This document shows, one piece after another, positions 4,404 through 36,904 of a stretch of DNA of 45,897 nucleotides. The stretch spans positions 1 through 45,897 of the forward strand of contig JBDRNJ010000069.1 in the NCBI GenBank assembly GCA_043811375.1, given 5' to 3'. This DNA comes from a bacterium (lineage in GTDB: Bacteria; Zixibacteria; MSB-5A5; GN15; FEB-12). Both the position numbers and the translations under genes were made by a program. Under the pieces are notes generated by a model. The model made no database searches. It saw only the letters and a program-made list of their open reading frames with translations, and had not been told where the DNA came from. Each line of letters begins with the position of its first letter. Within the stretch, counting starts at the first letter, position 1.

Positions 4404-5519
4404 ATGGTCATCGAATACGGCAAGACCGATACAGAAAAGGCAATTCTGATCGGGCTGGCGTTTAACTCCCTCCACCGTCGAGAGGTCACCGAATCCCTTC
4501 AGGAATTGGAGCGCTTGACCAACTCCGCCGGAGCTGTTGTAATCGGTTCCAGAATCCAGACGCGGGCCAGGCCTGATCCGGCTTTCTTCATTGGAAAGGG
4601 ATTGGTCAACGAAATAAAGGACCAGTTGGCCGACGGGGGCGGCAATTGTGTCATCTTTGACGATACTCTCAGCCCGGCCCAACAGCGCAACCTGGAAACA
4701 GCGCTTCAGGTCAAAGTTATTGACCGTCCCGTCCTGATTCTGGACATCTTCGCCACTCGCGCCCGTAGCAGTGCATCACGACTCCAGGTCGAGTTGGCCC
4801 AATTGGAATACACGCTGCCCCGATTGACCGGCGCCTGGATACACTTTTCCCGGCAGTATGGCGGTATCGGCGCCAAGGGACCCGGCGAAACGCAGTTGGA
4901 GATCGACCGCCGCCAGGTGGGGGCCAAAATTGCCCACCTGAAGAAAAAACTGGCGAAACTGTCACAGCAACGGGCCACCCAGCGCAAGAGAAGACAATCG
5001 TTATTTAAGGTGGCATTGATAGGGTATACCAATGCCGGCAAATCAACCCTGTTCAACCGGCTGACGAAAGCCCGGGTGAGAACGGCCGACATGTTGTTCA
5101 CCACCCTCGACTCCACTACGCGCGTAATGTCGGCCGGTTATCCCTGCAATATCATCTTTTCCGACACGGTGGGGTTTATCAAGAAACTCCCCCACCAGTT
5201 GGTGGAATCGTTTAAGTCTACTCTCGAAGAAGTCAGCCTGGCCGACCTGCTGCTGCACGTGGCCGACTGTTCGGATCCAAACCTTCTCGAACGAATCATT
5301 CAAACCCGACAGGTGCTTTCAGAAATCGGCGCCGACGAGATTCCCTACCTGATGATTTATAACAAAGTGGATATAGTGCCGGAATTTGTTCTTCCGCCTG
5401 AGAAAGGGGGCGGGGCTTTTGCAATATCAGCCCGGGACATAATCGGGATTTCGGCGCTGCAGGCTGAGTTGGTGGCGCAATCGACTCAATTCTCACGGCG
5501 GGGCGGTCGGGGGCGTTAA
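4404..5519 (+). CDS. hflX: GTPase HflX
   Basis: GPGETQLEIDRR, GYTNAGKSTL, FTTLD, DTVGF, NKVD. Confidence 0.97.
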   Translation: MVIEYGKTDTEKAILIGLAFNSLHRREVTESLQELERLTNSAGAVVIGSRIQTRARPDPAFFIGKGLVNEIKDQLADGGGNCVIFDDTLSPAQQRNLETALQVKVIDRPVLILDIFATRARSSASRLQVELAQLEYTLPRLTGAWIHFSRQYGGIGAKGPGETQLEIDRRQVGAKIAHLKKKLAKLSQQRATQRKRRQSLFKVALIGYTNAGKSTLFNRLTKARVRTADMLFTTLDSTTRVMSAGYPCNIIFSDTVGFIKKLPHQLVESFKSTLEEVSLADLLLHVADCSDPNLLERIIQTRQVLSEIGADEIPYLMIYNKVDIVPEFVLPPEKGGGAFAISARDIIGISALQAELVAQSTQFSRRGGRGR

Positions 5520-20881: not shown

Positions 20882-21897
20882 TTGACCTGAACACAACCTG
20901 GTTTATACTGGTGGGCGTCCTGATTACCGGGTATGCCATACTGGATGGCTTCGACCTCGGTGTCGGGGTGCTGCATCTCTTCGCAGACAATGAGCAGCAA
21001 CGTCGAGTTAATATGAATGCCATCGGACCGGTCTGGGACGGCAACGAAGTCTGGCTATTGACCGCCGCCGGCGCACTGTTCGCCGCTTTTCCACCGGTGT
21101 ACGCTACCATCTTTAGTGGCTTCTACCTGGCGATGATGCTCATTCTGGCAGCACTAATTTTCCGAGCGGTATCGCTGGAGTTTCGCAGCAAAGTTGACTT
21201 GTCGATATGGCGACGATTCTGGGACTGGTCGTTTGGGCTGGGCAGTCTGCTGCCGGCGCTGCTGTTTGGCGTAGCTGTGGGCAATTTACTACGAGGTGTT
21301 CCCATCGACGTCAATGGAGCCTGGGCAGGTAGTTTTCCGGGGTTGCTTAACCCGTACGCCTTGCTGGTCGGTGTCCTGAGTCTGGTCATGCTGGTGATGC
21401 ACGGCGCCGTCTATATGACGACCAGGACCGAGGGCGATCTGTGTCGGCGAATGAGTCAGTGGGCGCTGCGCGGATGGGTGGGATTTGTGATCGTCTATCT
21501 GCTGGTGACCCTGTATTCGTTCTTTGAGGCCGGTTATCTCTTTGAGGGACTCCTGGCCAATCCGTTGTTCTGGCTGTTTCTGGTAATGCTCCTGGCGGCG
21601 ATCAGCTACCTGCCGATAGCCCTGAGAGCGGCCAGGTATGGGCGAGCATTTTTCTCATCGGCGGTTATGATTGTCAGCGTGATTGCGTTGGCGGCGGTAA
21701 GTATGTATCCCCGACTGGCTCCTTCCAGCATCGACCTGGCCTACAGCCTGACCGCCTACAACGCTTCTTCAACGCCACGGACACTGACCGTGATGCTGAT
21801 TATCGCAGCGATCGGGATGCCGATTGTAATCGGCTATACTGTTTATATGTACCGCGTGTTCAAGGGCAAGGTGGAGGTCACATCGGAAAGCTATTGA
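20878..21897 (+). CDS. cydB: Cytochrome bd ubiquinol oxidase subunit II
   Basis: LDGFDLGVG, GPVWDGNEVWL. Confidence 0.97.
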   Translation: MIDLNTTWFILVGVLITGYAILDGFDLGVGVLHLFADNEQQRRVNMNAIGPVWDGNEVWLLTAAGALFAAFPPVYATIFSGFYLAMMLILAALIFRAVSLEFRSKVDLSIWRRFWDWSFGLGSLLPALLFGVAVGNLLRGVPIDVNGAWAGSFPGLLNPYALLVGVLSLVMLVMHGAVYMTTRTEGDLCRRMSQWALRGWVGFVIVYLLVTLYSFFEAGYLFEGLLANPLFWLFLVMLLAAISYLPIALRAARYGRAFFSSAVMIVSVIALAAVSMYPRLAPSSIDLAYSLTAYNASSTPRTLTVMLIIAAIGMPIVIGYTVYMYRVFKGKVEVTSESY

Positions 21898-21927
21898 GGT
21901 CGGCCGCCGCTACCGGAAATAAGAAAC

Positions 21928-22024
21928 GAAAAGGGTAACTCTTTTTAAGTCAACGGGACAGCAAGGTCGTTTCTCATCGACCCTGCTGCCCGCATCCATA
22001 ATGTCTTATAGCGGTACGGGGAAT
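21928..22024 (+). pseudogene. Decayed 3' end of a serine integrase paralogous to 34012-35652
   Basis: Reads KGNSF*VNGTARS/FSSTLLPASIMSYSGTGN versus EGTLFQINGTARPFSSALLPTSKMSHSGTGN; one stop and one 1-nt insertion. Confidence 0.8.
22008..22024. repeat. Left att direct repeat (copy of tRNA-Glu 3' end)
   Basis: ATAGCGGTACGGGGAAT identical to 35621-35637. Confidence 0.9.
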
Positions 22025-22308
22025 TGGGACATTATGGAAGTTGGTCTGGAGATTGAGTTCACGGTCTTGTCACGCCGCGGGCGCCGAAAAGCGACTGGCT
22101 GAATCGGAACCCCCGTCCCCTTTGAAACCCTTCTGAAAGTGGCCTAATTTGCTCTAAATCAGCCACTTATATATACACACCCCGGAAAAATTCCGAGCTG
22201 AGCACACACAGGGGAGATTTCGTTTCAGGTAGAACCAAGCGCCTACTCTACCCTGAAATGCACTCAGGAGCCGCTCCCCTCCCCACCAAACACTCCCCAC
22301 CAAATCCA

Positions 22309-22337
22309 TTGACTCCCAGGCACATTTTCGGTATATT
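22309..22337 (+). promoter_or_regulatory. Sigma70-type promoter for island cargo gene
   Basis: TTGACT-17bp-TATATT. Confidence 0.65.
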
Positions 22338-22374
22338 GCGGCGGTAGGGAATATGAAATGAATGGGGAGATTCT

Positions 22375-24702
22375 ATGAGAGTATTGATACTGGGCTGCGG
22401 CCTTATTCTCGCTACTATCAATCTCAATGCCGCCACCATCCATGTTCCAGCAGATCAACCAACGATTCAGTGGGTAAAGACCTACGGGGGAGATATAGGT
22501 GACAGAGCTTTCCGAATTATCCAGACGCCCGACAGCGGGTATGCTTTCCTGGGAGCCACTATGTCTTTCGCGGAAGGAAATGATGACTACTGGTTAGTGC
22601 GATTGAATCCAGACGGTGACACGCTCTGGACAAAAACCTATGGCGGCCCCGAAGGTGTGGCTCCTCGGGACATAATCAACACCTTTGACGGTGGTTTCAT
22701 GATCTGCGGCAACAACACCAATTACGGTTATGACAGCACATTCTTTGCCCTAAAAACCGATAGCTTAGGCACTGAAGAATGGATGGCGTCCGTGGGCTAC
22801 CGGAACTCGCACGCAAAGGCAGTAGTACAGAGTCCGGATTCCGGTTTTCTGTTCGCCTGTTTAGTCACCAATGCATCGGGCATCGGATATTGGTCGGTGT
22901 TGAAGATTGACAATGATGGTGACTCACTGTGGCTGCTGGCTTTCACAGCAGACTCTGCGGACATTAGTATCAGTGAAATAATTCGCGTAGATAACGACAA
23001 TTACATTGTATCTGGATCGCACAGTTATACGGGAGCATACCAATACGACGTGTTCGTGGCTAAGCTGGCCGATGATGGTTCTGTCTTATGGAGTCAGCAT
23101 TTCGGTTCAGGCACACGCCAGAGCGCGAATCGCTTAGCCCAGATTTCTGATTCAACCATTGTTGCTGCAGGTTCTCAAGATTATCACGCAACCTTTTGGG
23201 TGCTGGACTTGGATGGTGCACATCTCGATTCATTGCAGTTTGGGGACAGTGCAGAATACGCAGGAGACGTTTCAGCTACTGTCGATGGCGGATTCATTCT
23301 GTGTACTACCATAGAGGAAAGCCCTTTCCCAGATAAAGCTACCACTGCGAGAATTAGGAAATATGATAGTCTGTTCAATGAGCAGTGGGTTACAGCTACG
23401 GATAGCAGCTTTGACGAGGTTGAGGCGTATTCCATCCAGCAGACTTGCAACGGAGGGTTCATATTTGGAGGCCGAGCAAGCAATCATGCAACTTCGCCGG
23501 ACATCGATATGTACGCTCTCAAGATAGCGACTGAATTGCCGCATCTATCGCTGTTTCTAATAGACAACGAGAATCCGAATACGCATTGCATCACTGATAC
23601 TCCTATCTTTGAGTGGTCAATCATTGATCCCGAGGGAATTGGGCAGCAGGGGTATGAGATACAAGTCGGTCTCGACAATGACTGGACAGTAGCGGAAATG
23701 TGGGCGTCCGGGGAAGTAACAACATCAGATACTGCCGCCACCTATTCGGGCTTGCCACTCTCAGACGGAACCACATATCAGTTGCGAATCCGTGTCGCCA
23801 ATGTCCTTCATTGGTCGCCTTGGTACAGCACGTGGTTCAGACTCAACTCTATCCCCTCCGTCCCTACCCCGCTGAGTCCTATCGATGACGTTATTGTCGG
23901 CACGACACCCGCTCTCTGGGTCGAGAACTCCACCGACGCTGAGGGTGACACTTTGACATACGACTTCCTTGTGGATGTAGACACGCTGTATGGAGAACCT
24001 GATCCGGTCTTAGGCTATGGTATCCCGGAAGGTGAAGATTCGACCGGGTGGCAGGTAACAGAGTCCCTGGACGAAAACAAGCGTTACGTGTGGATTGTAC
24101 GCGCATTCGATGGCTACGAGTACTCTGACTGGACAGGAGGCTATGAGTACACTTTCTTCGTCAACAACACACCAGAACCACCCACTACGCCACAGGCTCA
24201 ATTCCCGCCGGACACCAGCGGTTTGCCAGTGTTCGATATGCTACCGACGTTCCTGTGGGCCGAGTCTACCGATCCCGACCCGCTGGACACGGTCAGGTAT
24301 AAACTGGAGATAGCGGTTGATTCGACATTTATATTTGTCAACACCATCGACTCAATCGAATCCGTGCCCTTCACACTCGACGATTCGCTTTCGTTCGGCA
24401 CTCGTTACTGGTGGCGCGTGACGGCCTTCGATAAAACCGGCCTGTCTACTCTCTCACCGAACACACCCGACTACTGGACCTGGACGCTCGGTGACGTGGA
24501 CCATTCGCATGACGTTTCAGTTGGCGACTTGACATATCTGGTCGCTTATCTGTTCCAGGGTGGACAACCGATTTACCCGCTGTTTGTTGGTGATATTGAC
24601 GGCAGTTGCGCAGTGGACGTTGGTGACTTGACGTATCTTGTAGCATACCTGTTCCAATCCGGCCCACCGCCGAAGGTGGGGTGTGAAAAGAGGATAGAAT
24701 GA
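22375..24702 (+). CDS. Secreted beta-propeller-like protein (W.KTYGG repeats) with FN3/Ig-like modules and C-terminal dockerin
   Basis: Signal peptide, WVKTYGG/WTKTYGG repeats, YWWRV modules, duplicated dockerin motif. Confidence 0.85.
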   Translation: MRVLILGCGLILATINLNAATIHVPADQPTIQWVKTYGGDIGDRAFRIIQTPDSGYAFLGATMSFAEGNDDYWLVRLNPDGDTLWTKTYGGPEGVAPRDIINTFDGGFMICGNNTNYGYDSTFFALKTDSLGTEEWMASVGYRNSHAKAVVQSPDSGFLFACLVTNASGIGYWSVLKIDNDGDSLWLLAFTADSADISISEIIRVDNDNYIVSGSHSYTGAYQYDVFVAKLADDGSVLWSQHFGSGTRQSANRLAQISDSTIVAAGSQDYHATFWVLDLDGAHLDSLQFGDSAEYAGDVSATVDGGFILCTTIEESPFPDKATTARIRKYDSLFNEQWVTATDSSFDEVEAYSIQQTCNGGFIFGGRASNHATSPDIDMYALKIATELPHLSLFLIDNENPNTHCITDTPIFEWSIIDPEGIGQQGYEIQVGLDNDWTVAEMWASGEVTTSDTAATYSGLPLSDGTTYQLRIRVANVLHWSPWYSTWFRLNSIPSVPTPLSPIDDVIVGTTPALWVENSTDAEGDTLTYDFLVDVDTLYGEPDPVLGYGIPEGEDSTGWQVTESLDENKRYVWIVRAFDGYEYSDWTGGYEYTFFVNNTPEPPTTPQAQFPPDTSGLPVFDMLPTFLWAESTDPDPLDTVRYKLEIAVDSTFIFVNTIDSIESVPFTLDDSLSFGTRYWWRVTAFDKTGLSTLSPNTPDYWTWTLGDVDHSHDVSVGDLTYLVAYLFQGGQPIYPLFVGDIDGSCAVDVGDLTYLVAYLFQSGPPPKVGCEKRIE

Positions 24703-24890
24703 GCAGAAAGATGTACTTGATAGTCTCAGGCACAATCTTTGGCCTTGTGGCATGTTTACACTTGGCAAGGTTGATGTTTGGGGGGCAGGCTCAGGTCGGT
24801 ACATGGACAGTTCCGTTTTGGCTATCGTGGGGCGGACTTGTGGGTGCAGGAGTGCTCTGCATTTGGGCGTTCCGGCAGGTAGGGAAATAG
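24699..24890 (+). CDS. Small 2-TM membrane protein
   Basis: ATGA overlap with upstream gene; two hydrophobic helices, HLARL..G, PFWLSW. Confidence 0.7.
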   Translation: MSRKMYLIVSGTIFGLVACLHLARLMFGGQAQVGTWTVPFWLSWGGLVGAGVLCIWAFRQVGK

Positions 24891-25007
24891 GTTGGGGCCA
24901 ATTTCTGTTATTTATGGCGCAGCGCCGGCTGATTGCACGTGACCGGCTAAAACACCTAAGATGAGTTGAGTGAATTTGATAGATTAGCGAAGATAAGGAA
25001 TCATGAT

Positions 25008-25352
25008 ATGAGTTCTAATGGAACAAGTGACTCAGGCGAATTTCCCTCAGCTGAAGCGGTCGAACTCTGTGATATGGTCTCATACCAGAATGGTTCGATA
25101 GTGAGTCGCACTATGATTAAAAAGAAAAGCGGTTCCCTTACGCTTTTTGCGTTCGATGCAGGGCAATCCCTGTCTGAACACACGGCACCATATCAGGCAT
25201 TTGTACAAGTAATTGATGGGGAAGTTGAACTAATTGTTGATGGTAAAAGCATTGTTGCGGAAAAAGGCAAGACTGTGCTAATGCCCGCTGATATTCCTCA
25301 TGCGGTTCACGCTCATGAGCGATTCAAGATGTTACTTATCATGATCAGATGA
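25008..25352 (+). CDS. Cupin domain protein
   Basis: TLFAFDAGQSLSEHTAP, MPADIPHAV, FKMLL. Confidence 0.9.
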   Translation: MSSNGTSDSGEFPSAEAVELCDMVSYQNGSIVSRTMIKKKSGSLTLFAFDAGQSLSEHTAPYQAFVQVIDGEVELIVDGKSIVAEKGKTVLMPADIPHAVHAHERFKMLLIMIR

Positions 25353-25385
25353 ACTCAGTGATGCAAAGAAAGGCATGGGCACTAA

Positions 25386-25541
25386 GTTGCTTTCATTTGT
25401 CAAGGCGGGCAGCCAATCTATCCGCTGTTCGTCGGCGACATAGACGGGAGTTGCGCTGTCGACGTAGGCGATTTGACGTTTCTCGTCGCGTACCTGTTTC
25501 AATCCGGCGCAGCACCGAAGGTGGGGTGCGTGCCGAAGTAG
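25386..25541 (+). pseudogene. Orphan dockerin fragment (3' end of a lost paralog)
   Basis: Translates VAFICQGGQPIYPLFVGDIDGSCAVDVGDLTFLVAYLFQSGAAPKVGCVPK*, nearly identical to the C-terminus of 22375-24702; in-frame TAA just upstream and no start. Confidence 0.85.
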
Positions 25542-25599
25542 GTCTGACAGTAATATATAGGGTTATGGGTACTGGGCTTAATGTGGAGGGAACGTCGGA

Positions 25600-25950
25600 A
25601 TGAAGTTCAAGGATATCGTTGAAGGCGACTTGGTTATTGTTAACCTGTACGGCAAGATTCTCGGTGGACAGGAGACCGCCATTTGCCATAGTCGAGTACA
25701 CGAGCATCTCAATTCAGGCCGGAAGCACTTCGTGATGGATATGGGGAATGTAGAGTGGACAAACTCGCAAGGTCTCGGTATGTTGATAGGGTGCTACGTT
25801 TCTATCAAGAAGGCAGGAGGTCGAGTGGTTCTGGCAAGGATGGACAATGTTAAGAAGTTGCTGACCATGACGCGCCTTATACAAGTGTTTGACTGCTACG
25901 ACAGCGTGGAGGAGGCCAAACAGGCGCTGATCGAGAGGTCACCCAACTGA
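25600..25950 (+). CDS. STAS-domain anti-sigma factor antagonist
   Basis: VMDMGNVEWTNSQGLGMLI, LTMTRL..VF..YDSVEEA. Confidence 0.88.
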   Translation: MKFKDIVEGDLVIVNLYGKILGGQETAICHSRVHEHLNSGRKHFVMDMGNVEWTNSQGLGMLIGCYVSIKKAGGRVVLARMDNVKKLLTMTRLIQVFDCYDSVEEAKQALIERSPN

Positions 25951-26063
25951 GCATGGGCGGCCCAACCCCGGCAGCGTGTCCATAACTGTACGACCATTAG
26001 TGTGCTGCAATCGGTTGGCTCAATAGCCAGGCGGTTGGTTGAATCTACAGAAGGGAGTGAATA

Positions 26064-26912
26064 ATGAAGCGTATGGCCTGGTTGGCAGCGTTGCTGACAG
26101 TGTGCCTTCCTGGACTCGGTCACCATTACTGCGGAAGGACCCGCAGAGGCATCGTAGCTTGGGTCTTGGTGGTCGTCATAGCGAACGCTTGTTTTGCCGC
26201 TCTGCTCTTCGTCGATGCGGCGCCTTTGAACGTCATTCTGCCTTTGGTACTTGGGCTCGCAGCAGGTGTAGCTGTAGTAGTGGATTCCGTAAAAACCGCC
26301 AAAGCTGTCGATACCAGTTTCAGGTCAACTAAGTACCACAGATGGTACGTTTATATTGTCATTATCGCTGCGTGGATCATCCTGGGCCCACGTCTTGTCC
26401 CCATGTTCGGAACATACGAATCATTCAAGGTGCCCTCCACGGCTATGGAAAACACAGTGTTAGCGGGGGACTACTTCTTGGCTGACATGAGTGCCTACAG
26501 GTCAGCAGCACCCCAGCGCAACGATGTTGTTGTATTCATTTACCCGGTGGACGGCGTGACCAAGTATGTGAAGCGGTGTGTCGCTCTCCCAGGCGATACT
26601 GTCGAAGTTAGGGATAAAGTGGTACTGGTCAACGGCAATCGGTTTGAGGACCCTGCACAGGTGAAATACATAGATACGACAGCGGACGGAGGGCCAGTAA
26701 TACAGCCGCGACGGGCCGGCAAACAGGACAGCAGGGACAATTTCGGACCATTCGTCGTGCCGAGGGATTGCTATTTCATGATGGGAGATAATCGGGACAA
26801 TTCCTATGACTCGCGGTACTGGGGAGCGGTGCACAGGGACCTGATACTCGGCAAGGCGGTTAGGATCACCTGGAGTCAGACTTTTGATCGGGTCGGGATG
26901 TCAGTGAAATAG
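26064..26912 (+). CDS. lepB: Signal peptidase I
   Basis: PSTAMENT (catalytic Ser), YVKRCVALPGD (Lys), MGDNRDNSYDSRYWG; N-terminal TM extension. Confidence 0.92.
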   Translation: MKRMAWLAALLTVCLPGLGHHYCGRTRRGIVAWVLVVVIANACFAALLFVDAAPLNVILPLVLGLAAGVAVVVDSVKTAKAVDTSFRSTKYHRWYVYIVIIAAWIILGPRLVPMFGTYESFKVPSTAMENTVLAGDYFLADMSAYRSAAPQRNDVVVFIYPVDGVTKYVKRCVALPGDTVEVRDKVVLVNGNRFEDPAQVKYIDTTADGGPVIQPRRAGKQDSRDNFGPFVVPRDCYFMMGDNRDNSYDSRYWGAVHRDLILGKAVRITWSQTFDRVGMSVK

Positions 26913-27282
26913 GGGGCAATTGCGTTAAGGGCAAGGCCAATTCTGAAAACCCGTCGACACTTCTGAGCGATGGGAACCCAATATCCATAAATGGGTCCCA
27001 TCTAAAGGGGGGTGGTGGTGTTGTGCATTTGCCGGTGTGCTGTGCTTCTCGACTCACCAAATATCACCTTAAGGGCCAGCCCAATCAGGGCTGATTCCCG
27101 GCGTTTACCCCTGTTAATACTGCTATTACAGGCGATTCAGTATAATATCCTGATAACAGGATCATATAACTTTAAGTATAGTACCACTTGACTAAATATA
27201 AAAGATATTGAATACTTACAGGCAGGATAGTAGAGAGTTACTACCAAACAGTTACTTGAGCCTATTAGGTATTGTTGAGGTA

Positions 27283-27705
27283 ATGAGCAGTCAGCGAGAA
27301 TCGAGCCGGTGTGAACACGTCAAAGCCAGCGGGGACAGGTGCAAGGCAAAGCGCATCTCCGGTTCACAGCATTGCTTCTGGCACGACCCGACGAAGAGTG
27401 ACGATCGCAGGGCAGCCGGCCAGAAAGGCGGCAGTCGCCACCGGGCGAGGAGCTTGCCTAAAGAGGCCGCAGAGTTTGAAGTCAAGAAGTCTGAGGACGT
27501 GGTCAAACTGCTGAGCGTGACCATCAATCAAGTTCGCAGAGGCGAGATCGACCCCAGAATCGCAAACTCAGTTGGCTATCTGTCCGGGATTATTCTGAGA
27601 GCACGCGAGCAGGGGGACATCGAAGAAAGGCTGACACAAATCGAACAAATTGTTCAAAAAGGGAGGACAGGCGATGTCACAACGATTTCAGCGTCGGCTC
27701 ACTGA
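27283..27705 (+). CDS. Hypothetical mobile-element protein with N-terminal CCCH zinc knuckle (HGGxSTG-like)
   Basis: RC-x8-C-x10-CFWHDP...GQKGG; C-terminal EERLTQIE; SD GAGGT. Confidence 0.65.
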   Translation: MSSQRESSRCEHVKASGDRCKAKRISGSQHCFWHDPTKSDDRRAAGQKGGSRHRARSLPKEAAEFEVKKSEDVVKLLSVTINQVRRGEIDPRIANSVGYLSGIILRAREQGDIEERLTQIEQIVQKGRTGDVTTISASAH

Positions 27706-28084
27706 GCTTGAAGACAATCTCCAGGTGGGCGGTGACCGTGAGCAGTTCGAGCGGGACAGACGTTTCTTCTACAACCTTCAGAATCTCTCCAACCTGGCAA
27801 TCATAATCCTGATGCGTGCCACGGTGGATGAGATGGAGGTGCCGGAGTGGCTTGCCGCAGAGGTGCTGAAACCGATACCGCCAGATGCTCCAAAGGAGCT
27901 GGTTTTAGAGGCAACGAAACGTGCTGAAGGAATTGAGTCGCTTCATGGCGCCGACCAGGATCAACTAATCAGTGAGATAGATCAGGTAATAGACTTCTAT
28001 GCCGAGCGGTCACGCCAAACAATGGGTTCGCTGGCTGACGTACAGGCCTATCTGGAGGATCAGAGTATACCAGCGCTGGTGTAA
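27674..28084 (+). CDS. Hypothetical protein
   Basis: SD GGAGG, overlaps previous gene, helical composition. Confidence 0.6.
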   Translation: MSQRFQRRLTELEDNLQVGGDREQFERDRRFFYNLQNLSNLAIIILMRATVDEMEVPEWLAAEVLKPIPPDAPKELVLEATKRAEGIESLHGADQDQLISEIDQVIDFYAERSRQTMGSLADVQAYLEDQSIPALV

Positions 28085-28268
28085 GGGATAGCTGCGTAGA
28101 AGCCAACCCTGTTAATCCACCGCATCATTCACTAAAGCACGACCGTTGTACTTGCCTGCTACGATGATGGTCAACAGCGTTCACCACCGTTCACCACCGT
28201 AGTATGTGATAAAACTGACCTACCTGTCGATTATTCGCTTGACATTCGTTCAACAATTGTCGATATTA

Positions 28269-28409
28269 CTTATGCTCACTGACACGTCGCGTTTTTTTGT
28301 GTCAGATACATAGTGCCCGTAAGACGACTCTAATGCGTCCCTCAGCGTTCGTGTTAGTGAGCGAGTTGTCGAGCGGGCACGTTATTCTGGAGTTTCTTAT
28401 GCTCACTAA
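28269..28409 (+). ncRNA. Candidate C4/P4-CI-like structured antisense leader RNA
   Basis: Direct repeat CTTATGCTCACT (28269, 28396), internal complement CGTGTTAGTGAGC (28350-28362), long stem 28313-28380; TTGACA at 28239. Confidence 0.5.
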
Positions 28410-29097
28410 GAAACACTCTCCCAAATCAGGCCGACTTGTCGTCGGCTACGTCCGGGTATCCACTGCCAGACAGGCCGCCGAAGGCCAGAGCATTGATGCC
28501 CAGGTTCAACGTATCCATGCTTACGCCAAAGCAAATGATCTCACTGTGGACAAAGTCTACACTGAGAACGGAGCCAGTGGCAAGAACACCGACCGACCTG
28601 TCTTAACCCAACTGCTGGCAGACCTGGACGACATCGGTGTCGTGATCGTCTACAAGTTTGACCGGATCAGCCGATCAGTGGTCGATCTGTACAGCCTCCT
28701 GGAGCGTTTTCAGACAGCTGGGATCACCTTCAAATCAGTCAGTGAGGGTGTGGACACCGGCTCGGCCGTTGGCAAGTTCATGATGAACGTACTGGCCGGA
28801 CTCGCTCAAATGGAGCGGGAGTTGATTGGCGAACGGACAAAAGACACTCTGGCCAGCAAGCAGGCCCGCGGTGAACATTGCGGCAGGATACCCTTCGGCT
28901 TTCGCATGGGCGACGACGGTCACCTGGAGCGGGACCCGAGTCAGCAGCTGGTGATTGCCAGGATTAAGAGACTGAGACGAAATGGCCGGTCCGAACGCGA
29001 CATTTCGGAGCGGTTAAGCCTGCCAAAATCGACCGTTCATATTGTCGCGAGCCGACGGAGAAACTGCCGTAACGGTGTGTCACAGTGTCCGTTATGA
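28399..29097 (+). CDS. Small serine recombinase (resolvase/invertase family)
   Basis: VGYVRVST..Q, SGKNTDRP, DRISRS, AQMERELIGERT; C-terminal HTH. Confidence 0.92.
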   Translation: MLTKKHSPKSGRLVVGYVRVSTARQAAEGQSIDAQVQRIHAYAKANDLTVDKVYTENGASGKNTDRPVLTQLLADLDDIGVVIVYKFDRISRSVVDLYSLLERFQTAGITFKSVSEGVDTGSAVGKFMMNVLAGLAQMERELIGERTKDTLASKQARGEHCGRIPFGFRMGDDGHLERDPSQQLVIARIKRLRRNGRSERDISERLSLPKSTVHIVASRRRNCRNGVSQCPL

Positions 29098-29237
29098 GGA
29101 AAAGGTGCCCATAAAACGCTCCCTTTCTGGGCAAAACATTGTCTGAAACTTCTTGAAAAGATGCGCAGACCGCGCATATTAGGATAGATACTGAAACAAT
29201 ACTGAAGTGAAACTGAAACGAATAGGCAAGTGCTTCA

Positions 29238-30890
29238 ATGGCCCGTCACGAGCAGATTGACATTACGACCGCCGACATCGAGAGCATCGCATACCACAAC
29301 ATGCGAATCGGCGACATACCGGTACGTGACATGCAATTGGAAAAACCAAGTCTCGGCCTGACAGGTCGTTTTGACCCCAGCAGCATCATGCCTTGGGAGT
29401 TCGATGATTTTGCCTACCAATTCCGACTTAGCACCGGATACGAAGCGACCGCGGACAGTAGTACCATTCCTTCCGCTTGGGTGGAGCGGAATTTCCAGAG
29501 ACCTTGGCATCTTAGCGTTGATTGGCCCAGCAAGATTCGCAGTGGTCAGCGGATTCGCGTGCTGTTGCTTCCCCATAGGACGATGAGAGACACGAACGGG
29601 TGTGATCAGTTTCCCGAATACAACTTCGGATATGAGTTGCCACACCTGCTCCTATCTGAACAGTTGACGCTCAACACTGCTGACCGGCTTATGAATGTAC
29701 TCCCCGCAATCATCCGAATAATGAACTACTCCTGTCTCGGAGATAGTGCTGAACTCTTCGCGCTGAGGATGTTGATGTTTCTCCATCTGATCGAGTTAGA
29801 GGGCAAGGCCCTCCGATTTGGCTACTCTCCCATTTCCTCCCGCAGATCGCTCAGCAATTGTGGTTTAACGCTGGATCGATTGCGTATGATCGCGTCATTG
29901 GATGACGAGAAGAAGGAAAAATTAGAGCTGTCACTGAACCTACCGAGTTGCCGAATTGAGGATCTGCTCCAATCGTGGGAGGAATTTGGGCAGCGAATGG
30001 CCGTATCGTTTGCAGACGGCATACCTGAGGATGAGAGTATCTTGAACTGCGAAGTGATTCCACCCATTCCATTATCATTTGACAGGATTCAGCAGGTGAT
30101 GAAAGATCGAGGGCAAGATTGGGAGATGCCGGATATCAGTATCCCCTATAAACAATCCAAGTTGATCACCAAGGTTATGGAAGCTTTCCAGGCGCGAGGT
30201 GCTGGGTCTGAGATGGCCACAAACGGTATTGAGGATTCAGTGATAGAGACTCGTGCAGCGTCCAACAAGGAACTGAGCGTTTTTGAGAATCGGGACAGCT
30301 ACTGGATGACTGCCTTTGCAAGTATTGCTGTGAGGGTTCCAGATGTCAAGGGGATGTCATATATACACTTTCTGTTGGGCCACCCTTCCGAACCAGACAA
30401 GTCATATGAATACCACGTCCTTGATCTCGTCGGGCTGGTGGAGGGGCGTCCCCTCGATGCAGTAAGTGAGGCTTTGAGTGGTTTGACCCGAGAGAAGTTG
30501 GGTGAGGCTGGTCTTGACCGTAGCTGGCTGGAAAAACCGGAGAGGATGATTGACCGTCAGACGCAGCGGGAAATCGGACAATGTATCATGGAAATTGAGG
30601 ATCGACTGGCAGCAGGCAATTTCGCTGACCCGACTGAATCCTTGAGGTTGCAGCAAATGCTCACCCAACTGAAGAACTATCAAAAGGCCGCGCTCCGTTT
30701 CCGGGGTGGTACGAGAACTGACGCCTCAGTCACGGAAAAGGCAAGATCAAGCGTTACAAAACTGATCAACAAGGCCAAAGAGAAAATAAGAGAATACAAT
30801 AAAGGCCTTGGGACACATCTGGACAAAAGTCTCCACACGGGGATACACTTTCATTACAGCCCGGAGTACCCAATCGATTGGCAACTGTGA
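29238..30890 (+). CDS. Hypothetical protein with C-terminal putative DNA-binding regulator domain
   Basis: KGMSYIHFLL.HP ... EKARSSVTK.I ... HLDKSLHTG..F.Y.P resembles the C-terminus of large ATPase-type regulators. Confidence 0.6.
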   Translation: MARHEQIDITTADIESIAYHNMRIGDIPVRDMQLEKPSLGLTGRFDPSSIMPWEFDDFAYQFRLSTGYEATADSSTIPSAWVERNFQRPWHLSVDWPSKIRSGQRIRVLLLPHRTMRDTNGCDQFPEYNFGYELPHLLLSEQLTLNTADRLMNVLPAIIRIMNYSCLGDSAELFALRMLMFLHLIELEGKALRFGYSPISSRRSLSNCGLTLDRLRMIASLDDEKKEKLELSLNLPSCRIEDLLQSWEEFGQRMAVSFADGIPEDESILNCEVIPPIPLSFDRIQQVMKDRGQDWEMPDISIPYKQSKLITKVMEAFQARGAGSEMATNGIEDSVIETRAASNKELSVFENRDSYWMTAFASIAVRVPDVKGMSYIHFLLGHPSEPDKSYEYHVLDLVGLVEGRPLDAVSEALSGLTREKLGEAGLDRSWLEKPERMIDRQTQREIGQCIMEIEDRLAAGNFADPTESLRLQQMLTQLKNYQKAALRFRGGTRTDASVTEKARSSVTKLINKAKEKIREYNKGLGTHLDKSLHTGIHFHYSPEYPIDWQL

Positions 30891-30937
30891 TCGTACTCCC
30901 ATTCTCTTTTTCTGAAAATTCGTGACATTTCCGCAGA

Positions 30938-30976
30938 TGTAACCCCAAAGGTTACATTGTAACCCCAAAAGTTACA
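30938..30976. promoter_or_regulatory. Tandem palindromic operators TGTAAC-N7-GTTACA
   Basis: TGTAACCCCAAAGGTTACA (30938-30956) and TGTAACCCCAAAAGTTACA (30958-30976). Confidence 0.7.
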
Positions 30977-31068
30977 CCTCTTACAGTAGAGACAATAAGA
31001 TGGCGCGTTGGCTGCGATGCATTCACTCGCGGCCCGCCGCCTTCACAATGCTGAAAGAGGAAGCCATA

Positions 31069-31266
31069 ATGGCCGCTGATAGGCCTATAACAGACGGTTC
31101 AGCCGGGTTCCATGGTCTGATCGACCTGGTGGCTGAACTCATAGTTCAGCAGCGGTTCTCTGAGATTGAATCGCAGATAAAAGGAGGCGCAGATGAACGA
31201 GAACTCCCCCTACAAGACAGAGAAGCTGATCCTGGCGGCCTATCTGATTGCCGCCGGCAAGTGTGA
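31069..31266 (+). CDS. Small hypothetical protein
   Basis: SD GAGGA, ATG; first ORF after the operators. Confidence 0.4.
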   Translation: MAADRPITDGSAGFHGLIDLVAELIVQQRFSEIESQIKGGADERELPLQDREADPGGLSDCRRQV

Positions 31267-31456
31267 ACTGATCGGGACAGAGCCAACGCCCGGCTCACGC
31301 ATGGTGACGTTTGTACTGTCCAAACAGCCATCGGATGAAGACGTGTCGGCGTTCTTCACCGGGTCGGCAGTGATATCGGCTCTGCGGTATGCAGAAAGCA
31401 TTAATTCCTGTAAAGGGGTGGCATATGAAGCCCGCAAGCGTAGCCAGCAAGCCTGA
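31193..31456 (+). CDS. DUF5659-like small mobile-element protein
   Basis: Y.T.KLILAAYL, V.FV, F.G...ISALRY pattern; SD AGGAGG. Confidence 0.65.
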   Translation: MNENSPYKTEKLILAAYLIAAGKCELIGTEPTPGSRMVTFVLSKQPSDEDVSAFFTGSAVISALRYAESINSCKGVAYEARKRSQQA

Positions 31457-31682
31457 CCTGCCCGTGGATCTCGAATCCTGGGACAGTAAGACACTGGAGC
31501 AATACCTGGCAGAACACGGGATTAGACGTGGGCCACTTCCGTGCAGGCGTGACGTGGACCAGCCGGAGGTGGAAGACTGGGAAGAGTATGAAAAGGCCAA
31601 GAAGCTGATCCAGAGGCTCAACCCCACGCACGAGCAGGAGTTTCTCTTTCGCAATTGGGCAGCGGACTACTTGGTGGTGTGA
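31425..31682 (+). CDS. Hypothetical protein
   Basis: Overlapping ORF in operon-like string. Confidence 0.55.
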   Translation: MKPASVASKPDLPVDLESWDSKTLEQYLAEHGIRRGPLPCRRDVDQPEVEDWEEYEKAKKLIQRLNPTHEQEFLFRNWAADYLVV

Positions 31683-31699
31683 AAGGGAGCCTATACACT

Positions 31700-32296
31700 A
31701 TGGCCAATTTCAATCAAGTATTGGAACGGCTCACCATCCGTGACATCCTGGCCGATGCGGGCTACCACCTGCGAGGTAACCGGCTGCCCTGTTTCTTGCA
31801 TGATGGAAAGAACCCTACATCACTCGCATTTACCGAGCACACTTTCTATTGCCATTCTTGTGGCGCAAGCGGTGGTCTGCTCGACCTAATAGGTTATCTG
31901 CATCATTGCAGTCGAGAGGGCGCGTGCCGATACGCTCACGACTTGGCCGGTCTGCCGTTTGAAGACAATCAAGCCGATCCGCCGCCGGAGTCCTTTCGAC
32001 TGCGGCCGCCCTGTCGAATCAACCCACTGTTGTCAAACGAAGAGTACCTGGCCGCTAAGAATCGACTGGAGTGGCTCACGACCATCCATAAGGGACTCCA
32101 CATATATCTCCAGATCATACGGCGCAACGTGCAGACTGGCAGGATACCACTGGAGGATTTCTACCGGAGAGAGGAAGTCATACTGTACCAGCTTGAGGAA
32201 CTGGATTCGATAGTAAGTGAAGCAAAATGGGAGCTAAGTGAAACAAAAAGGAAGGCAAGAACCTATGACAATACCGAAGCATGTTGCGGCGGCTGA
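31700..32296 (+). CDS. CHC2 zinc-finger (DnaG N-terminal-like) protein
   Basis: CFLH..KNPTS...FYCHSCGASG. Confidence 0.85.
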   Translation: MANFNQVLERLTIRDILADAGYHLRGNRLPCFLHDGKNPTSLAFTEHTFYCHSCGASGGLLDLIGYLHHCSREGACRYAHDLAGLPFEDNQADPPPESFRLRPPCRINPLLSNEEYLAAKNRLEWLTTIHKGLHIYLQIIRRNVQTGRIPLEDFYRREEVILYQLEELDSIVSEAKWELSETKRKARTYDNTEACCGG

Positions 32297-33902
32297 GTTC
32301 GGCTTGGACCACCAGATGAATGAGGTTGGGACCGCCGATCCATTTGAGCAGAAGATATTGGCGATAAATCCCGACCTCTCGCCAGTCGAACGAGCCACGA
32401 CTCTCAGGACGATCATACAAGGACTTGCGGACCTGGACGTCGCGTATGGAGAGGCTGTGCTTTCCCATACGGTCAAAGAGCACTTCGGCCTGACTGCGTC
32501 AGAACTCAAATCTTATCGCGCTGATCTGAACAGATACCGGAAAGATGCCACCAAGCGGACGAACGGCAAGGGTGATGAGCAGACCGGTCAAAAGCGGCCA
32601 GCTTACACAGCCAGGTTCGAGGGCTTGGTTGACGTCGTGGAGCATGATGGCAAGGCGGCGTTCCTCGTGAAGAATGATGATCGACTTGAAATACAGACCT
32701 CTGTTGATATCGATGGCACTAGCCATCACCCACCGCCAGCCAGACAAATTCCCTGGGAGCTACCCCGGGGAAAGAAGGTGGTAGAGATTTACAATGATGA
32801 GAGCCAGATGCGACCGGGAGAGGCGGATTGGGCGACATTTGGAGAGGTTGTTTCCTATCTCAAACAGAACTCCCAGCTTCCAGCCGATGGGCACTATGAT
32901 CTACTGGCTGCCTGGATTCTCCATACATACTGCCTGGAGCAATGTCAGTATTCCCCTGTTATATGTCTCTTTGCTGTGCCCGAACGGGGCAAGAGCCGAA
33001 CTGGCAAGGGTGCCATCTACGTAGCTTACCGTGGTATTTACGTGGAATCTCTGCGGGACGCTTACATGGTCAGGGTGGCCAATAACTTCTGTGCAAGCCT
33101 GTTCATAGACGTCCGGGACGTCTGGCGGCGAGCTGAAAAGGCTGGAAGCGACGATATCCTACTCCTGCGTTACGAGAAAGGAGCCAAAGTCCCCAGAGTC
33201 CTCTACCCCGAAAAAGGCCCATTCTGTGACACTGTGTATTACGATATTTTCGGCCCGACCATAGTCGGTACTAACGAGGGGGTCCACAAGATACTGGAAA
33301 CCAGGGCGATCCAGATGAATATGCCACAGACCGCCAAACGCTTTGAGAACGACATTACACCTGAAATCGCCCTTCCCTTGAAAGAAAAGCTCCTGGCATT
33401 CCGAGCGAGACACCTCGGGGAACCCTTTCCAGATATTGCCAAACCTGCTTTTGGTAGACTCGGGGATATTCTGAAACCGCTCCAGCAGATAATTAGGGCG
33501 GTCAGCCCCGAGCGAGAGAAGAGCTTCCTCGAACTCGTCCGGGACTTGGAGCGAGAGAGGCTGAACGAGAAAGCCGACAGTCTCGAGGCCAGGATTCTTA
33601 CTGTTCTTGAGAGCCTCAGGAACCAGGTGGATAAGGGCAAGTTGGCTATCAAGGATATTACAGACTCCCTGAATGAGGGGAAAACCGAAAGGAACCAGAT
33701 CAGATACCAAACGATCGGCCGAAGGCTATCGGCGATGGGTTTCGAGAAAGCCCGAATGGGCAACAACATGGGCATAGTATGGAACGAGGACCAGATCGAG
33801 CGGTTCCGGAGTGCCTACGGCCTGAAACAAACACACGAAACACACGAAACACACAAAACTGTTGCGTCCCAACGGAGTTTGCTGAGTTCAGAAACTGTGT
33901 GA
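32265..33902 (+). CDS. DUF3631-like replication/helicase-type protein
   Basis: LAAWILHTY, SP.I...PERGKSR (Walker A-like), GP.IVG, LETRAI.M.M, GRL.D..KPL. Confidence 0.65.
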   Translation: MTIPKHVAAAEFGLDHQMNEVGTADPFEQKILAINPDLSPVERATTLRTIIQGLADLDVAYGEAVLSHTVKEHFGLTASELKSYRADLNRYRKDATKRTNGKGDEQTGQKRPAYTARFEGLVDVVEHDGKAAFLVKNDDRLEIQTSVDIDGTSHHPPPARQIPWELPRGKKVVEIYNDESQMRPGEADWATFGEVVSYLKQNSQLPADGHYDLLAAWILHTYCLEQCQYSPVICLFAVPERGKSRTGKGAIYVAYRGIYVESLRDAYMVRVANNFCASLFIDVRDVWRRAEKAGSDDILLLRYEKGAKVPRVLYPEKGPFCDTVYYDIFGPTIVGTNEGVHKILETRAIQMNMPQTAKRFENDITPEIALPLKEKLLAFRARHLGEPFPDIAKPAFGRLGDILKPLQQIIRAVSPEREKSFLELVRDLERERLNEKADSLEARILTVLESLRNQVDKGKLAIKDITDSLNEGKTERNQIRYQTIGRRLSAMGFEKARMGNNMGIVWNEDQIERFRSAYGLKQTHETHETHKTVASQRSLLSSETV

Positions 33903-33932
33903 TTGGTGGGTTTCGTGCCTTTCGTGTGTTTT
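33829..33932. repeat. Iteron-like 9-bp direct and inverted repeats (candidate origin)
   Basis: AAACACACG x2 + AAACACACA (33829-33855); inverted GTTTCGTG and TTTCGTGTGTTT (33910-33932). Confidence 0.65.
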
Positions 33933-34011
33933 ATGCAGTGTGTGGGTAATGGATATTGACAATTCAGCCAGTTCTGGTTACTCTGCACAGAAGCGGGGAG
34001 TAGGTGAAACA

Positions 34012-35652
34012 ATGCGCTGCGCCATTTATAGCAGATATTCGATTGAGACTCAGAGCCCGCGTTCGCTGGTTGACCAGATCAGTGAGTGCCAATCGCTTGC
34101 CAAGCAAAAAGGATGGATTGTACTGCCGGCCCACATTTACCAGGATGCCGCTGTCTCGGGATCGGATGTCAACCGGACGGCCTACGGAGACTTGAAGCGG
34201 GCGGCTCTAAACCGCGAATTTGACTGTATCCTTGTGGATGATCTATCCCGCCTGGGCAGGGACATGGCCGAGTCAGCGAGCATATTCAGGGATCTATCCA
34301 ACATCGGCGCCAGAATAGTCAGTGTCTCAGATGGCATTGACACCAACAACCCTGCGGCTAAGATACCGTTCTATTTCAAGGGTATCATGAATGAGATGTT
34401 CCTTGATGATCTGAAAGCGAAAGTCATCAGGGGACTCAAGGGGCAGGTTCTGCGTGGGTATTCTGCGGGTGGGCGAGTCTACGGATACAATACCAAGCAA
34501 ATCCTCGATCCTTCCGGTGCCACGGACAAGTTCGGCAGACCCAAGCGAATCGGATGTGAGATTACTATCTATCAGGAGCAGGCCCGGATCGTGCAGGAGA
34601 TATTTAACCTTTCAAAATCGGGTTTTGGGTGCAGATCAATTGCTGAGTCACTGAACCAGCGCAAAGTTCCATCTCCTCACGCCTCTGTGGCAGGAAGAAG
34701 TGGATACTGGGGTAGGGGGACTGTCTACTCGATCTTGCATCAAAGGAAGTATCTTGGTGACTGGACTTGGAATAAGTCCAAATGGCTCAACAGGACTCAG
34801 AGTGGAAAACGGATCAAGCAGAAACGTCCCGAATCCGAGTGGGTTCATCACCAGGATGAAGAACTACGGATTGTGTCTGACGAGCTTTGGCAGAGCGTGC
34901 ACCCCGGAAACACTACTCGGACCCGGGTTAGCAGTGGTAGGCGCAGCATTTACCCGTTGTCCGGTGTGCTGAAATGTTCGTATTGTGGTGCCTCACTGGT
35001 CGTTCAAAACAGCGGCAAGTACTCATGCTATATGTGCAACGGCTACCGCAATGGTGGCCGGACCGTCTGTTCAAACAACCGCCGTATCTTACGTGATCCT
35101 CTGGAAAAGTCCTTCTTCGCTGAACTGAATTTGGCTTTTATGAACCCCACTATCCTACAGCAGGTGAAGGAAAAAGCGGAAAATGCGCTCAAGGCACGTC
35201 TGGCTGACTGGCGGCAATCGTTTGAGTCGGCACGATCCAGAAAGCGGGACCTATCGCGACAACTTGACAATTTGATGAAGTTCGTTGAGGATGGTGACAG
35301 CTCCCCGGCAATCAGAGAGAGGATTGCACAAAAGGAAGCAGAGTTGGTCTCCGCTGAGGCGCTGCTTGAAAGAGGTTCCAGACACCGGTGTTTAGATCAC
35401 AACATATCAGTGGAATACCTTGAACGTCACCTTGGGCAACTGGCGACCCTTTTCAAACAGAACAAGCGTTACACAGTGCGCCTGAAGCAGGAAATCAAAA
35501 ACCTCTTCCCTGATGGCTTAGCAGCCGTTCAGGAAGAGGTCGATGAAGGCACACTATTTCAAATCAATGGTACAGCAAGGCCATTTTCATCGGCCCTGTT
35601 GCCCACTTCCAAAATGTCACATAGCGGTACGGGGAATCGAACCCCGGCTTGA
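34012..35652 (+). CDS. Large serine recombinase (integrase)
   Basis: CAIYSRYS..Q, DDLSRLGR, recombinase domain (YGY, YLG), zinc ribbon LSGVLKCSYCG...C...C, coiled coil. Confidence 0.95.
   Translation: MRCAIYSRYSIETQSPRSLVDQISECQSLAKQKGWIVLPAHIYQDAAVSGSDVNRTAYGDLKRAALNREFDCILVDDLSRLGRDMAESASIFRDLSNIGARIVSVSDGIDTNNPAAKIPFYFKGIMNEMFLDDLKAKVIRGLKGQVLRGYSAGGRVYGYNTKQILDPSGATDKFGRPKRIGCEITIYQEQARIVQEIFNLSKSGFGCRSIAESLNQRKVPSPHASVAGRSGYWGRGTVYSILHQRKYLGDWTWNKSKWLNRTQSGKRIKQKRPESEWVHHQDEELRIVSDELWQSVHPGNTTRTRVSSGRRSIYPLSGVLKCSYCGASLVVQNSGKYSCYMCNGYRNGGRTVCSNNRRILRDPLEKSFFAELNLAFMNPTILQQVKEKAENALKARLADWRQSFESARSRKRDLSRQLDNLMKFVEDGDSSPAIRERIAQKEAELVSAEALLERGSRHRCLDHNISVEYLERHLGQLATLFKQNKRYTVRLKQEIKNLFPDGLAAVQEEVDEGTLFQINGTARPFSSALLPTSKMSHSGTGNRTPA
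35621..35637. repeat. Right att direct repeat
   Basis: ATAGCGGTACGGGGAAT, overlaps tRNA 3' end and integrase 3' end. Confidence 0.9.
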
Positions 35653-35693
35653 TGGCTGAGAACCATCTGTCCTAACCCCTAGACGATACCGCC
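35622..35693 (-). tRNA. tRNA-Glu(CTC), CCA not encoded
   Basis: Acceptor GGCGGTA/TACCGCT+A, anticodon arm GATGG-TTCTCAG-CCATC, T-arm CGGGG-TTCGATT-CCCCG. Confidence 0.96.
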
Positions 35694-35731
35694 AGATTTA
35701 TCTTACAGCATCCAAAGGACACATCAGTCCA

Positions 35732-35759
35732 AATATATGACGTTGGTTGTCTTTGTCAA
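35732..35759 (-). promoter_or_regulatory. Promoter of tRNA-Glu
   Basis: Minus strand TTGACA-16bp-TATATT. Confidence 0.7.
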
Positions 35760-36079
35760 GCCCTGCCAGACGATTGCAGCCCGTTGGTCCGGCCGCCACA
35801 CCAGTAATTCAATGGCACTGAATTAATTAGGCCGTGAATCGGGCATGGCGGTCCGGCAACGGTCGATGCTATCAGTGAGAGTTGGGTGTGACTGTGGTAC
35901 GGCCTGCTTTCAGTAGTCTGAAAGTATGAGTGTGAGTCGTTTTGATTGCTGTGCGAAAACAATCCACTCGTGAAAACTCGCTGCCGGCGTGCGGAAGCAG
36001 GCTTCTGAATATCGGATAGTGGTCCTTTTTTTCCCATTTGCTGTTGACATTTACCGGAATTTCGCTATATAAAGCTGAC

Positions 36080-36169
36080 AAGAAAAGCCCCCAAGGAAGC
36101 CCTGCCTGCCCCCCCTCCCGTGTGCTCAAGCCCATCAGGCAGGGTTTCTCCTTCCCTGGGGGCTTTTTT
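36080..36169 (+). ncRNA. Candidate ~90-nt structured small RNA
   Basis: TTGACA(36044) and TATATA/TATAAA(36066-36073) promoter, long hairpin AAAAGCCCCCA..GCCCTGCCTG / CAGGCAGGGT..TGGGGGCTTTTTT. Confidence 0.55.
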
Positions 36170-36298
36170 GGATGGCTCGCTCGGTTCGATTCTTCCGGTT
36201 AAAAAAACCCGCTGATTTGGGTTTCACAAAGCCTGATTCCGACGGCCAAACGGCAGAAAGAGCTTGACAGACAGCGCTTTCGCCGATTATTTAGTCGG

Positions 36299-36904
36299 AT
36301 GTCTCACGATAAACATCAGATGTTCTTTGACCAGTTGGCGACTGAATGGGACCTGAAGTTCACCGCCGAGGACCTGGAGCTGCTTTCGCACGTTGTCGAT
36401 AAGCTTCAAGTCCGGGAAGGCATGGATATCCTTGATCTGGGCTGTGGCACCGGCATCCTTTTTGATATGCTGCGCCGCAAAGTCGGCCGGAACGGCTCCG
36501 TCACCGGGGTAGACTTCTCAATCGAAATGGCTGAGAAAGCACACCGCAATTTCCCCTTTGCCAATGTCAACGTAGTCGATGCCGACGCTACCGATTTGCC
36601 TTTTGCTGATTCCACATTTGATATGGCGGTGGCGTTTTCGGCCTTCCCTCATTTCTCCAATCAGCAGCAGGCGATGGACGAAACTCACCGCATCCTCAAA
36701 CCCCGGGCCAGGTTCTACATTATTCATCTGGTTTCCTCCCGGGAACTTTCGCAGTTGCACCACAAGATCGGGGGGGTGGTGAAGCACGATGAAATCCCGC
36801 CCGAGGCCAAACTTCGCCAAATGTTTAACCACAGCAAGTTTGTTGATGTTGTTATCGATGACCACCCTGGCCGTTACCTGGCCAGTGGGGTAAACTCCAA
36901 GTAG
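36299..36904 (+). CDS. Class I SAM-dependent methyltransferase
   Basis: ILDLGCGTG, GVDFS.EM, DATDLPFADSTFD, FSAFPHF. Confidence 0.9.
   Translation: MSHDKHQMFFDQLATEWDLKFTAEDLELLSHVVDKLQVREGMDILDLGCGTGILFDMLRRKVGRNGSVTGVDFSIEMAEKAHRNFPFANVNVVDADATDLPFADSTFDMAVAFSAFPHFSNQQQAMDETHRILKPRARFYIIHLVSSRELSQLHHKIGGVVKHDEIPPEAKLRQMFNHSKFVDVVIDDHPGRYLASGVNSK

Follow-up and report, generated by a model that had tools for sequence, protein, structure and literature searches.

An integrase gene that runs through its att core

The stretch of DNA described here (hereafter the window; 45,897 nucleotides, contig JBDRNJ010000069.1 of assembly GCA_043811375.1, from a bacterium of the Zixibacteria) contains an element integrated at a tRNA-Glu(CTC) gene, with a predicted circle of 13,613 bp in an assembly of 3.56 Mb. 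The integrase of this element is a large serine recombinase (LSR) encoded on the plus strand at positions 34012..35652, and its open reading frame (ORF) runs head-on into the tRNA gene (35621..35694, minus strand). Translation from an ATG codon at 34012, which has a Shine-Dalgarno-like run and from which the homologues align, gives 546 residues; a GTG codon at 33940 is the other possible start and gives 570. The catalytic domain matches the Resolvase family (PF00239, E 4e-23), with Y6, R8 and S10 nearly invariant among 41 homologues. Recombinase (PF07508) and zinc-ribbon (PF13408) domains are also present, with C322, C325, C342 and C353 invariant in the 41. All family domains found in the protein are of the serine type, and none is that of a tyrosine recombinase.

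A 17-bp att core occurs as a right copy within the integrase ORF (35621..35637, plus strand) and as an exact repeat at the left end of the element (22008..22024, plus strand). The core is the antisense 3' end of the tRNA gene, and these two copies are its only matches, at up to two mismatches, in the whole assembly. In the sequence of the window, attP thus lies inside the integrase gene. As a preliminary description of this locus had stated, the integrase has no stop codon before the core, and the read-through of att is confirmed: in the integrated state the protein ends SHSGTGN-RTPA, the last four codons and the stop being supplied by the antisense strand of the tRNA gene. Joining 35637 to 22025, as on an excised circle, opens a stored tail of 25 codons and a TGA (22025..22102, plus strand), so that the circle isoform ends SHSGTGN-WDIMEVGLEIEFTVLSRRGRRKATG, with its stop at 22100-22102, and counts 567 residues from the same ATG. 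The strand-like segment and the basic patch described earlier are both present in this tail, the first as GLEIEFTVL (22043-22069) and the second, after it, as SRRGRRKATG. Excision would swap the stub RTPA for the 25-residue tail, an interpretation supported, at the level of sequence, by the comparisons given below.

The AC dinucleotide at 35629-35630 is the predicted centre of attP symmetry and the putative crossover point. A P' arm lies 12-25 bp from this centre within the integrase coding sequence (35605..35618, plus strand) and is likely a binding motif for the second DNA-binding domain (DBD2); its inverted repeat, with 13 of 14 positions matching, forms the P arm at 22028..22041 (plus strand). 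The first six codons of the tail overlap the P arm, an overlap that the preliminary description missed. A short symmetrical attP recurs among relatives, the same tRNA position being the best centre, outright or tied first, at 10 of 14 sites and among the top three at all 14.

The element has a G+C fraction of 0.516, against 0.54 in its flanks. Scans for promoters and terminators around the start of the integrase and the end of the tail yield nothing above shuffled sequence. The 35637/22025 circle joint was not seen in three public DNA runs compared with positions 21500-36300; these contain short pieces of relatives and cover only small shares of the integrase region, and the result counts neither way.

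Overlap with tRNA genes and conservation of the tail

An integrase homologue at E 1e-20 or better occurs in 44 of 285 genomes of the phylum, and at 23 of the 30 best loci an antisense tRNA meets the end of the integrase gene; of these 23 genes, four are broken and one, that of L030, ends short of the tRNA. A set of 160 metagenome and viral loci includes 119 with a full-length gene and its stop; in 101 of the 119, the last 150 coding bases contain an exact match of at least 12 nt to an antisense tRNA 3' end, as compared with 0/119 for a control stretch upstream. Overlap of the integrase end with an antisense tRNA is the rule in this family. Relatives use all three frames relative to the tRNA, and their targets include tRNA-Met, Thr, His, Leu, Asn, Asp, Ser and Phe among others. 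Genes that bear a tail also occur naturally: a set of 25 in the attP form was chosen by eye, and in the deposited genomes of phages RR1-A and Mae-JY30 a core-like motif leads into a tail that is not tRNA sequence and ends FVA and IAA, respectively. In Mae-JY29, neither core nor tail was found.

The preliminary description had asked whether related elements keep an open, conserved tail after attP; they do, in the frame of the integrase and at the level of protein. Briefly, far ends were gathered through their upstream DNA and a core pattern search of 40 genomes, and 18 short-core ends were kept. Full tRNA copies, chance hits in other genes (L045, L314, and contigs C13, C53 and C74 of the window's own assembly) and copies of 26-45 nt tRNA fragments (L044 right, L288, L301, L302, L306, L307, L311, L325, C15, C42) were dropped before tails were counted. 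An integrase fixes the frame in 13 of the 18 ends, from the same contig in six and from elsewhere in the same genome in seven. The other five, short copies framed by motif, were excluded from the 13-site tests; three of them enter the pairs used for the ratio of nonsynonymous to synonymous change (pN/pS), and all five enter the 19-tail end counts given below.

In frame, a stop lies 20-30 codons from the core start in 13/13 ends; off-frame, only 1/26 readings have one within 20-32 codons. The ends fall into two frame classes relative to the core, nine in one and four in the next. When each tail is scored in three frames against the tails of the other class, the integrase frame is best in all 13, also without the att arm. 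Compared at a 1-nt offset, the two classes share a DNA identity of 0.41, and at other offsets 0.22-0.26; split by codon position, the 1-nt comparison gives 0.37, 0.55 and 0.31. A peak at the 1-nt offset and at the second codon position is a coding signature, in which a shift upstream is compensated downstream of the core. Pooled over six disjoint pairs, pN/pS is 0.57 in frame versus 1.07 and 1.28 off-frame, and beyond the att arm 0.64 versus 0.97 and 1.61; values of about 0.6 denote weak constraint over few codons, and two of the six pairs show none. In the shared tail motif, a stretch of the I-P-x-E-x-x-I type with alternating hydrophobic residues is joined by a basic cluster and a small residue at the end, and the alternating hydrophobic run measures 4-6 in frame versus 0-5 off-frame. 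Judged from these alignments, the tail is under protein-level selection, and it very probably has some function.

A passive tail would merely supply a stop codon, with the likeness among tails left to shared descent and to constraint on the DNA of the att arm. The overlap of the arm with the first six codons and the modest pN/pS fit such a tail, as do several exceptions to the pattern: the L030 integrase stops 5 nt before the tRNA, the L044 tail has no basic end, the L329 tail has a premature stop, the L043 tail and one of two L055 copies lack the motif, and the nearest stored end at L057 has its motif in a frame other than that of the damaged integrase. These exceptions weigh against a conserved tail. 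So do the presence of the integrase on the same contig for only six of the 13 frame-known ends and the kinship of the sequences, which are not independent, so that the tail counts overstate certainty. At far ends of prophages, no core was found in 8 of 20, and two of the 12 tails reconstructed from the rest reach 53 and 67 aa. The latter two, from the far ends of L259 and L253 (L263, L264), are much longer than the others and share LGTWQIAL. However, conservation extends beyond the arm, follows the integrase frame in two classes and peaks at second codon positions, and the stop distance is kept in frame and not off-frame. A passive tail is therefore highly improbable, and for the Zixibacteria group it is largely refuted.

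Outside the element, immediately to its left, positions 21943..22005 (plus strand) hold a decayed 3' end of a sister integrase. The segment translates to a broken copy of the integrase end, with an in-frame stop and a 1-nt frameshift; it agrees with that end in 51 of 63 columns, scoring 64 where 500 shuffles reached 25 at most. Given this resemblance, the left end reads as an attP-type junction bearing what looks like the scar of an earlier tandem element, and not as a clean attR. Among 25 sites tested, similar scars rise above shuffles at contig C15 of the same assembly (4412-4500) and at L328, and are marginal at L289, L300 and L283. In the window and at C15, L289, L300 and L328 the scar directly precedes an att core and the rest of the gene is gone. 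Two to four att junctions are arrayed at L042 (627-7441), L057, contig C2 of genome G098 and contig C52 of genome G199; at L042 the inner unit combines a stored tail with two large predicted exported proteins, lacks an integrase, and is like an integrase-less cassette. Strict phage integrases use occupied sites poorly. The tandem junctions indicate that the enzyme of this family can use an occupied site, and they suggest relaxed att pairing.

Further members of the family lie in the same genome. Contig C42 (1638-3266) carries a second element, with a 55% identical integrase, in a tRNA-Met 3' fragment; the stored tail of that element, at a core at minus-strand position 7666 of contig C29, resembles the tail of the window, and a 60% identical small resolvase is found there. 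Three more distant LSRs on contigs C70 and C28 have the same layout, at a tRNA-His-like fragment, a tRNA-Leu and a tRNA-Asp, and C70 also has an 88% identical copy of the rep-like gene described below. In a tRNA-Met type read in the SGAG frame (L040, L048, L052, L049 and others), integration makes a TGC codon TGA, and homology stops one base short of the complete stop codon. L072 runs opposite to the family rule: the tRNA-Leu-like 3' fragment overlapped there by the end of a distant LSR is in the sense orientation. Duplicates of the tRNA-Met 3' end, of about 26-30 nt and with no tail motif, occur at L044 (18793), L288, L301, L306, L307, L311, L325, C15 (4501) and C42 (3249). No tyrosine integrase motif was found near the C15 copy of the longer tRNA fragment.

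Possible roles of the tail

The ends of the tails have a composition of their own. Nine of 19 Zixibacteria tails end in Ala, 16 have at least two Lys or Arg residues among the last eight, and one has an acidic residue in the last three; the corresponding counts in 1833 ORFs of the same genome, a background that includes shadow ORFs, are 103, 657 and 594. In a wider set divided into automatic classes, an Ala end is found in 15 of 32 attP-type genes versus 0 of 34 integrated ones, the attP class including miscalls (L217, L219, L234, L109, L124, L177). In composition the tail ends have the flavour of the MuA degron (CILEQNRRKKAI) and the ssrA degron, both of which appear in a list within PMC12723719, and clpX and clpP are present in the host genome. 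The tail might then be a degradation tag and nothing else: ClpXP or a similar protease would destabilise the circle form and make integration conditional, as with the repressor of mycobacteriophage BPs, for which the relevant part of PMC4557955 offers a precedent, and the strand-like pattern would be part of the tag or an adaptor site. Ends that are Ala-rich, basic and free of acidic residues agree with this, as do the phage tails, which are short and not confidently structured, and the FVA and IAA ends of RR1-A and Mae-JY30. However, what is best conserved in the Zixibacteria tails lies inside them, in the alternating hydrophobic stretch, and not at their very ends; AlphaFold2 pairs this stretch as a strand with high confidence; and the last residue of several tails is G, N, K, E or I. 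A tag alone is an unlikely account of the tail.

The structural prediction was made for P0018, in which a Zixibacteria-type integrase is naturally fused to a tail of this kind; P0018 is 43% identical and served as a stand-in for the joined isoform of the window; the same fused end occurs in L042, at a tandem junction. The AlphaFold2 model has a mean predicted local confidence (pLDDT) of 90 from a 113-row alignment, few rows of which cover the tail columns. A linker at residues 543-554 with pLDDT below 50 leads to a predicted strand at 560-568 (block pLDDT 87). The model matches solved integrases (Foldseek E 1e-17) and includes the inserted coiled coil. When it is aligned with Bxb1, with LI and with the complexes of a 535-residue integrase (9DX/9Y66 entries; presumably SPbeta), the match ends at residues 531-541, and the core lies at 548. 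Since alignments to most solved integrases end before the core, the tail is an add-on to a canonical body, and the enzyme is probably complete in its short form.

A strand of this kind could alternatively complete DBD2 and be needed for full activity, in which case integration would turn the enzyme down, much as in phage Mx8, with no part for a recombination directionality factor (RDF). The confident extra strand of P0018 is consistent with this. The relevant passage of McMurdie et al. proposes that DsiB, a serine integrase of Dehalococcoides, may require the circle, or a position downstream of a tandem island, for full function (PMC3146451), and the new 3' end of the Mx8 gene, as PMC6070905 has it in part, alters and does not abolish activity. 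Set against these parallels, the part of the protein that aligns with solved integrases is intact in the short form, and excision requires an active enzyme made from the integrated gene. We regard such attenuation as decidedly unlikely.

The reading that we favour, at about even chances, is a control with two parts: in the circle form, a strand would shield the edge used by RDFs, and a tag at the terminus would shorten the life of that form. Through recombination the integrase would alternate between a chromosomal form without the tail and a circle form with it. On the circle, the β strand of the tail would sit on the edge of the DBD2 sheet where most RDFs add a strand, and the enzyme so shielded would not respond to an RDF and would be bound to integrate. 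After integration, the protease-tag-like end would clear the tail-bearing form, and the remaining short form would have an open edge able to accept an excision factor. According to portions of PMC12286644, the DBD2 sheet gains a strand from most RDFs, and the SCCmec recombinases, possibly RDF-less, have extra C-terminal strands that could block the RDF site on DBD2; these two points lead us to favour a two-part tail. Support for its structural role (the extra strand) and its stability role (the protease-tag-like end) is circumstantial.

Several observations count against this two-part control. No RDF was identified in the element, just as none had been recognised in the preliminary description. 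Four alignments to phiC31 reach P0018 residues 554-558. In phage locus L198 the tail is modelled as a four-residue strand with pLDDT below 50, so strand docking is not general across the family. Finally, an Ala end is seen in only 3 of the 12 reconstructed prophage tails, and in the window itself the tail closes with ATG and not with AA.

A further reading, which we hold to be doubtful, is that of a self-directing integrase in a large, cross-phylum, tRNA-targeting family. The tailed form made from the circle would integrate and the tail-less chromosomal form would excise without an RDF, each reaction rewriting the gene into a form unable to undo it at once.

Other genes of the element and relation to known integrases

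Cargo genes occupy positions 22375..26912 (plus strand) and encode a 775-aa Ig/fn3 protein with a predicted export signal (judged by eye), a cupin, a STAS protein and signal peptidase I. The end of the 775-aa gene, which we take to be dockerin-like, is echoed downstream on the same strand as a 143-nt direct repeat (24541-24683 and 25386-25528, 77%), and contig C4 of the same assembly has close paralogues of both this gene and that for the STAS protein. A small serine recombinase with a resolvase domain and a weak helix-turn-helix, like DsiA in kind, lies at 28297..29097 (plus strand). An 87-aa protein at 31193..31456 (plus strand) is DUF5659-like, DUF5659 being the only result of an atlas search; it recurs among the related loci (12 sequences of that set), keeps company with the replication genes, and ranks as no more than a candidate RDF or excisionase. 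The probable replication module (31655..33902, plus strand) comprises a primase-type zinc-finger protein (31655-32296) and a 554-aa rep-like protein with no family match (32238-33902). Between the rep-like gene and the integrase, at 33822-33938, lies a 36-nt imperfect inverted repeat of AAACACACG-like units, possibly an origin or a regulatory hairpin; L051 and L044 have a similar unit-repeat pattern upstream of the integrase.

The overlap itself has been published, for DsiB and for Mx8. The preliminary description took attP inside int to be established for the tyrosine integrases of Mx8 and of Sulfolobus virus SSV1, which holds for Mx8 in the relevant parts of PMC6070905 and PMC4383910; its implied restriction to tyrosine integrases does not hold, since dsiB in Dehalococcoides always overlaps attL and has its stop beyond the island, according to the dsiB passages of McMurdie et al., 2011 (PMC3146451), which suggest that the overlap may regulate dsiB. 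The likeness to DsiB is one of gene layout, the integrase 3' end overlapping att with no stop inside the element. DsiB islands target ssrA (tmRNA), whereas the present element targets tRNA-Glu(CTC) and the tmRNA is on another contig. The same passages call the C-terminus of DsiB divergent and present no conserved circle tail (PMC3146451). The DsiB module has six genes (DsiA, RecF-like, ParB and Mom among its products); here a small serine recombinase lies about 5 kb from the integrase, and no ParB or Mom match was found among the element ORFs scanned.

In Mx8, too, attP lies inside int and integration gives a new 3' end, as parts of PMC6070905 and PMC4383910 describe. The Mx8 enzyme is a tyrosine recombinase, whereas here a serine recombinase would swap 4 residues against 25, beyond its canonical body. 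BPs carries a C-terminal protease tag only in the attP state, and integration removes it (PMC4557955, in part); its split gene is that of the repressor and its tag was demonstrated experimentally, whereas here the split gene is the integrase itself and a tag is suggested by composition.

The NCBIfam models for the SCCmec recombinases CcrA, CcrB and CcrC give 98.8 (CcrB, the best match), 65.5 and 35.2 bits, against cut-offs of 900, 900 and 700. Ccr enzymes share with the present integrase extra C-terminal DBD2 strands in models, the lack of a known RDF and relaxed att pairing, in the portions of PMC12286644 that deal with them. Their extension is permanent, whereas recombination would switch the one described here. 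The Ccr target is rlmH/orfX. In fold, in domain order and in the symmetry of its attP arms, which lie some 12-25 bp from the centre, the integrase resembles those of SPbeta, Bxb1, phiC31 and LI/A118; to our knowledge, such canonical large serine integrase genes are not split by attP. The integrase of the element is an LSR whose gene logic is like that of DsiB and Mx8; judged by the features that define the ssrA-island, Ccr and Mx8 families, it belongs to none of them.

A conserved attP-encoded tail on a serine integrase was not found in a full-text literature search, outside which lay most subscription journals and all supplements. The main text of PMC10083194 contains no mention of tRNA or of the string C-termin, the accessible parts of PMC12884075 and PMC8627217 hold nothing bearing on such a tail, and those of PMC11722253 give RDF background only.

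The Islander paper of 2014 (PMC4383910, in its passage on targets) described serine integrases as not known to target tRNA genes, and a Paracoccus prophage of the serine type at tRNA-Met is on record in part of PMC6536676. In the family described here the targets are conserved tRNA 3' ends, a kind of site that serine integrases were long held, in such accounts, not to use. A section of PMC12286644 calls the control of direction in serine integrases without a recognisable RDF an open question; because the natural isoform pairs of this family differ by one predicted strand and a tag-like end, they make that question directly testable. Integrases mined from integrated elements are annotated in their short form, and screens for genome-editing recombinases may therefore clone the wrong isoform.

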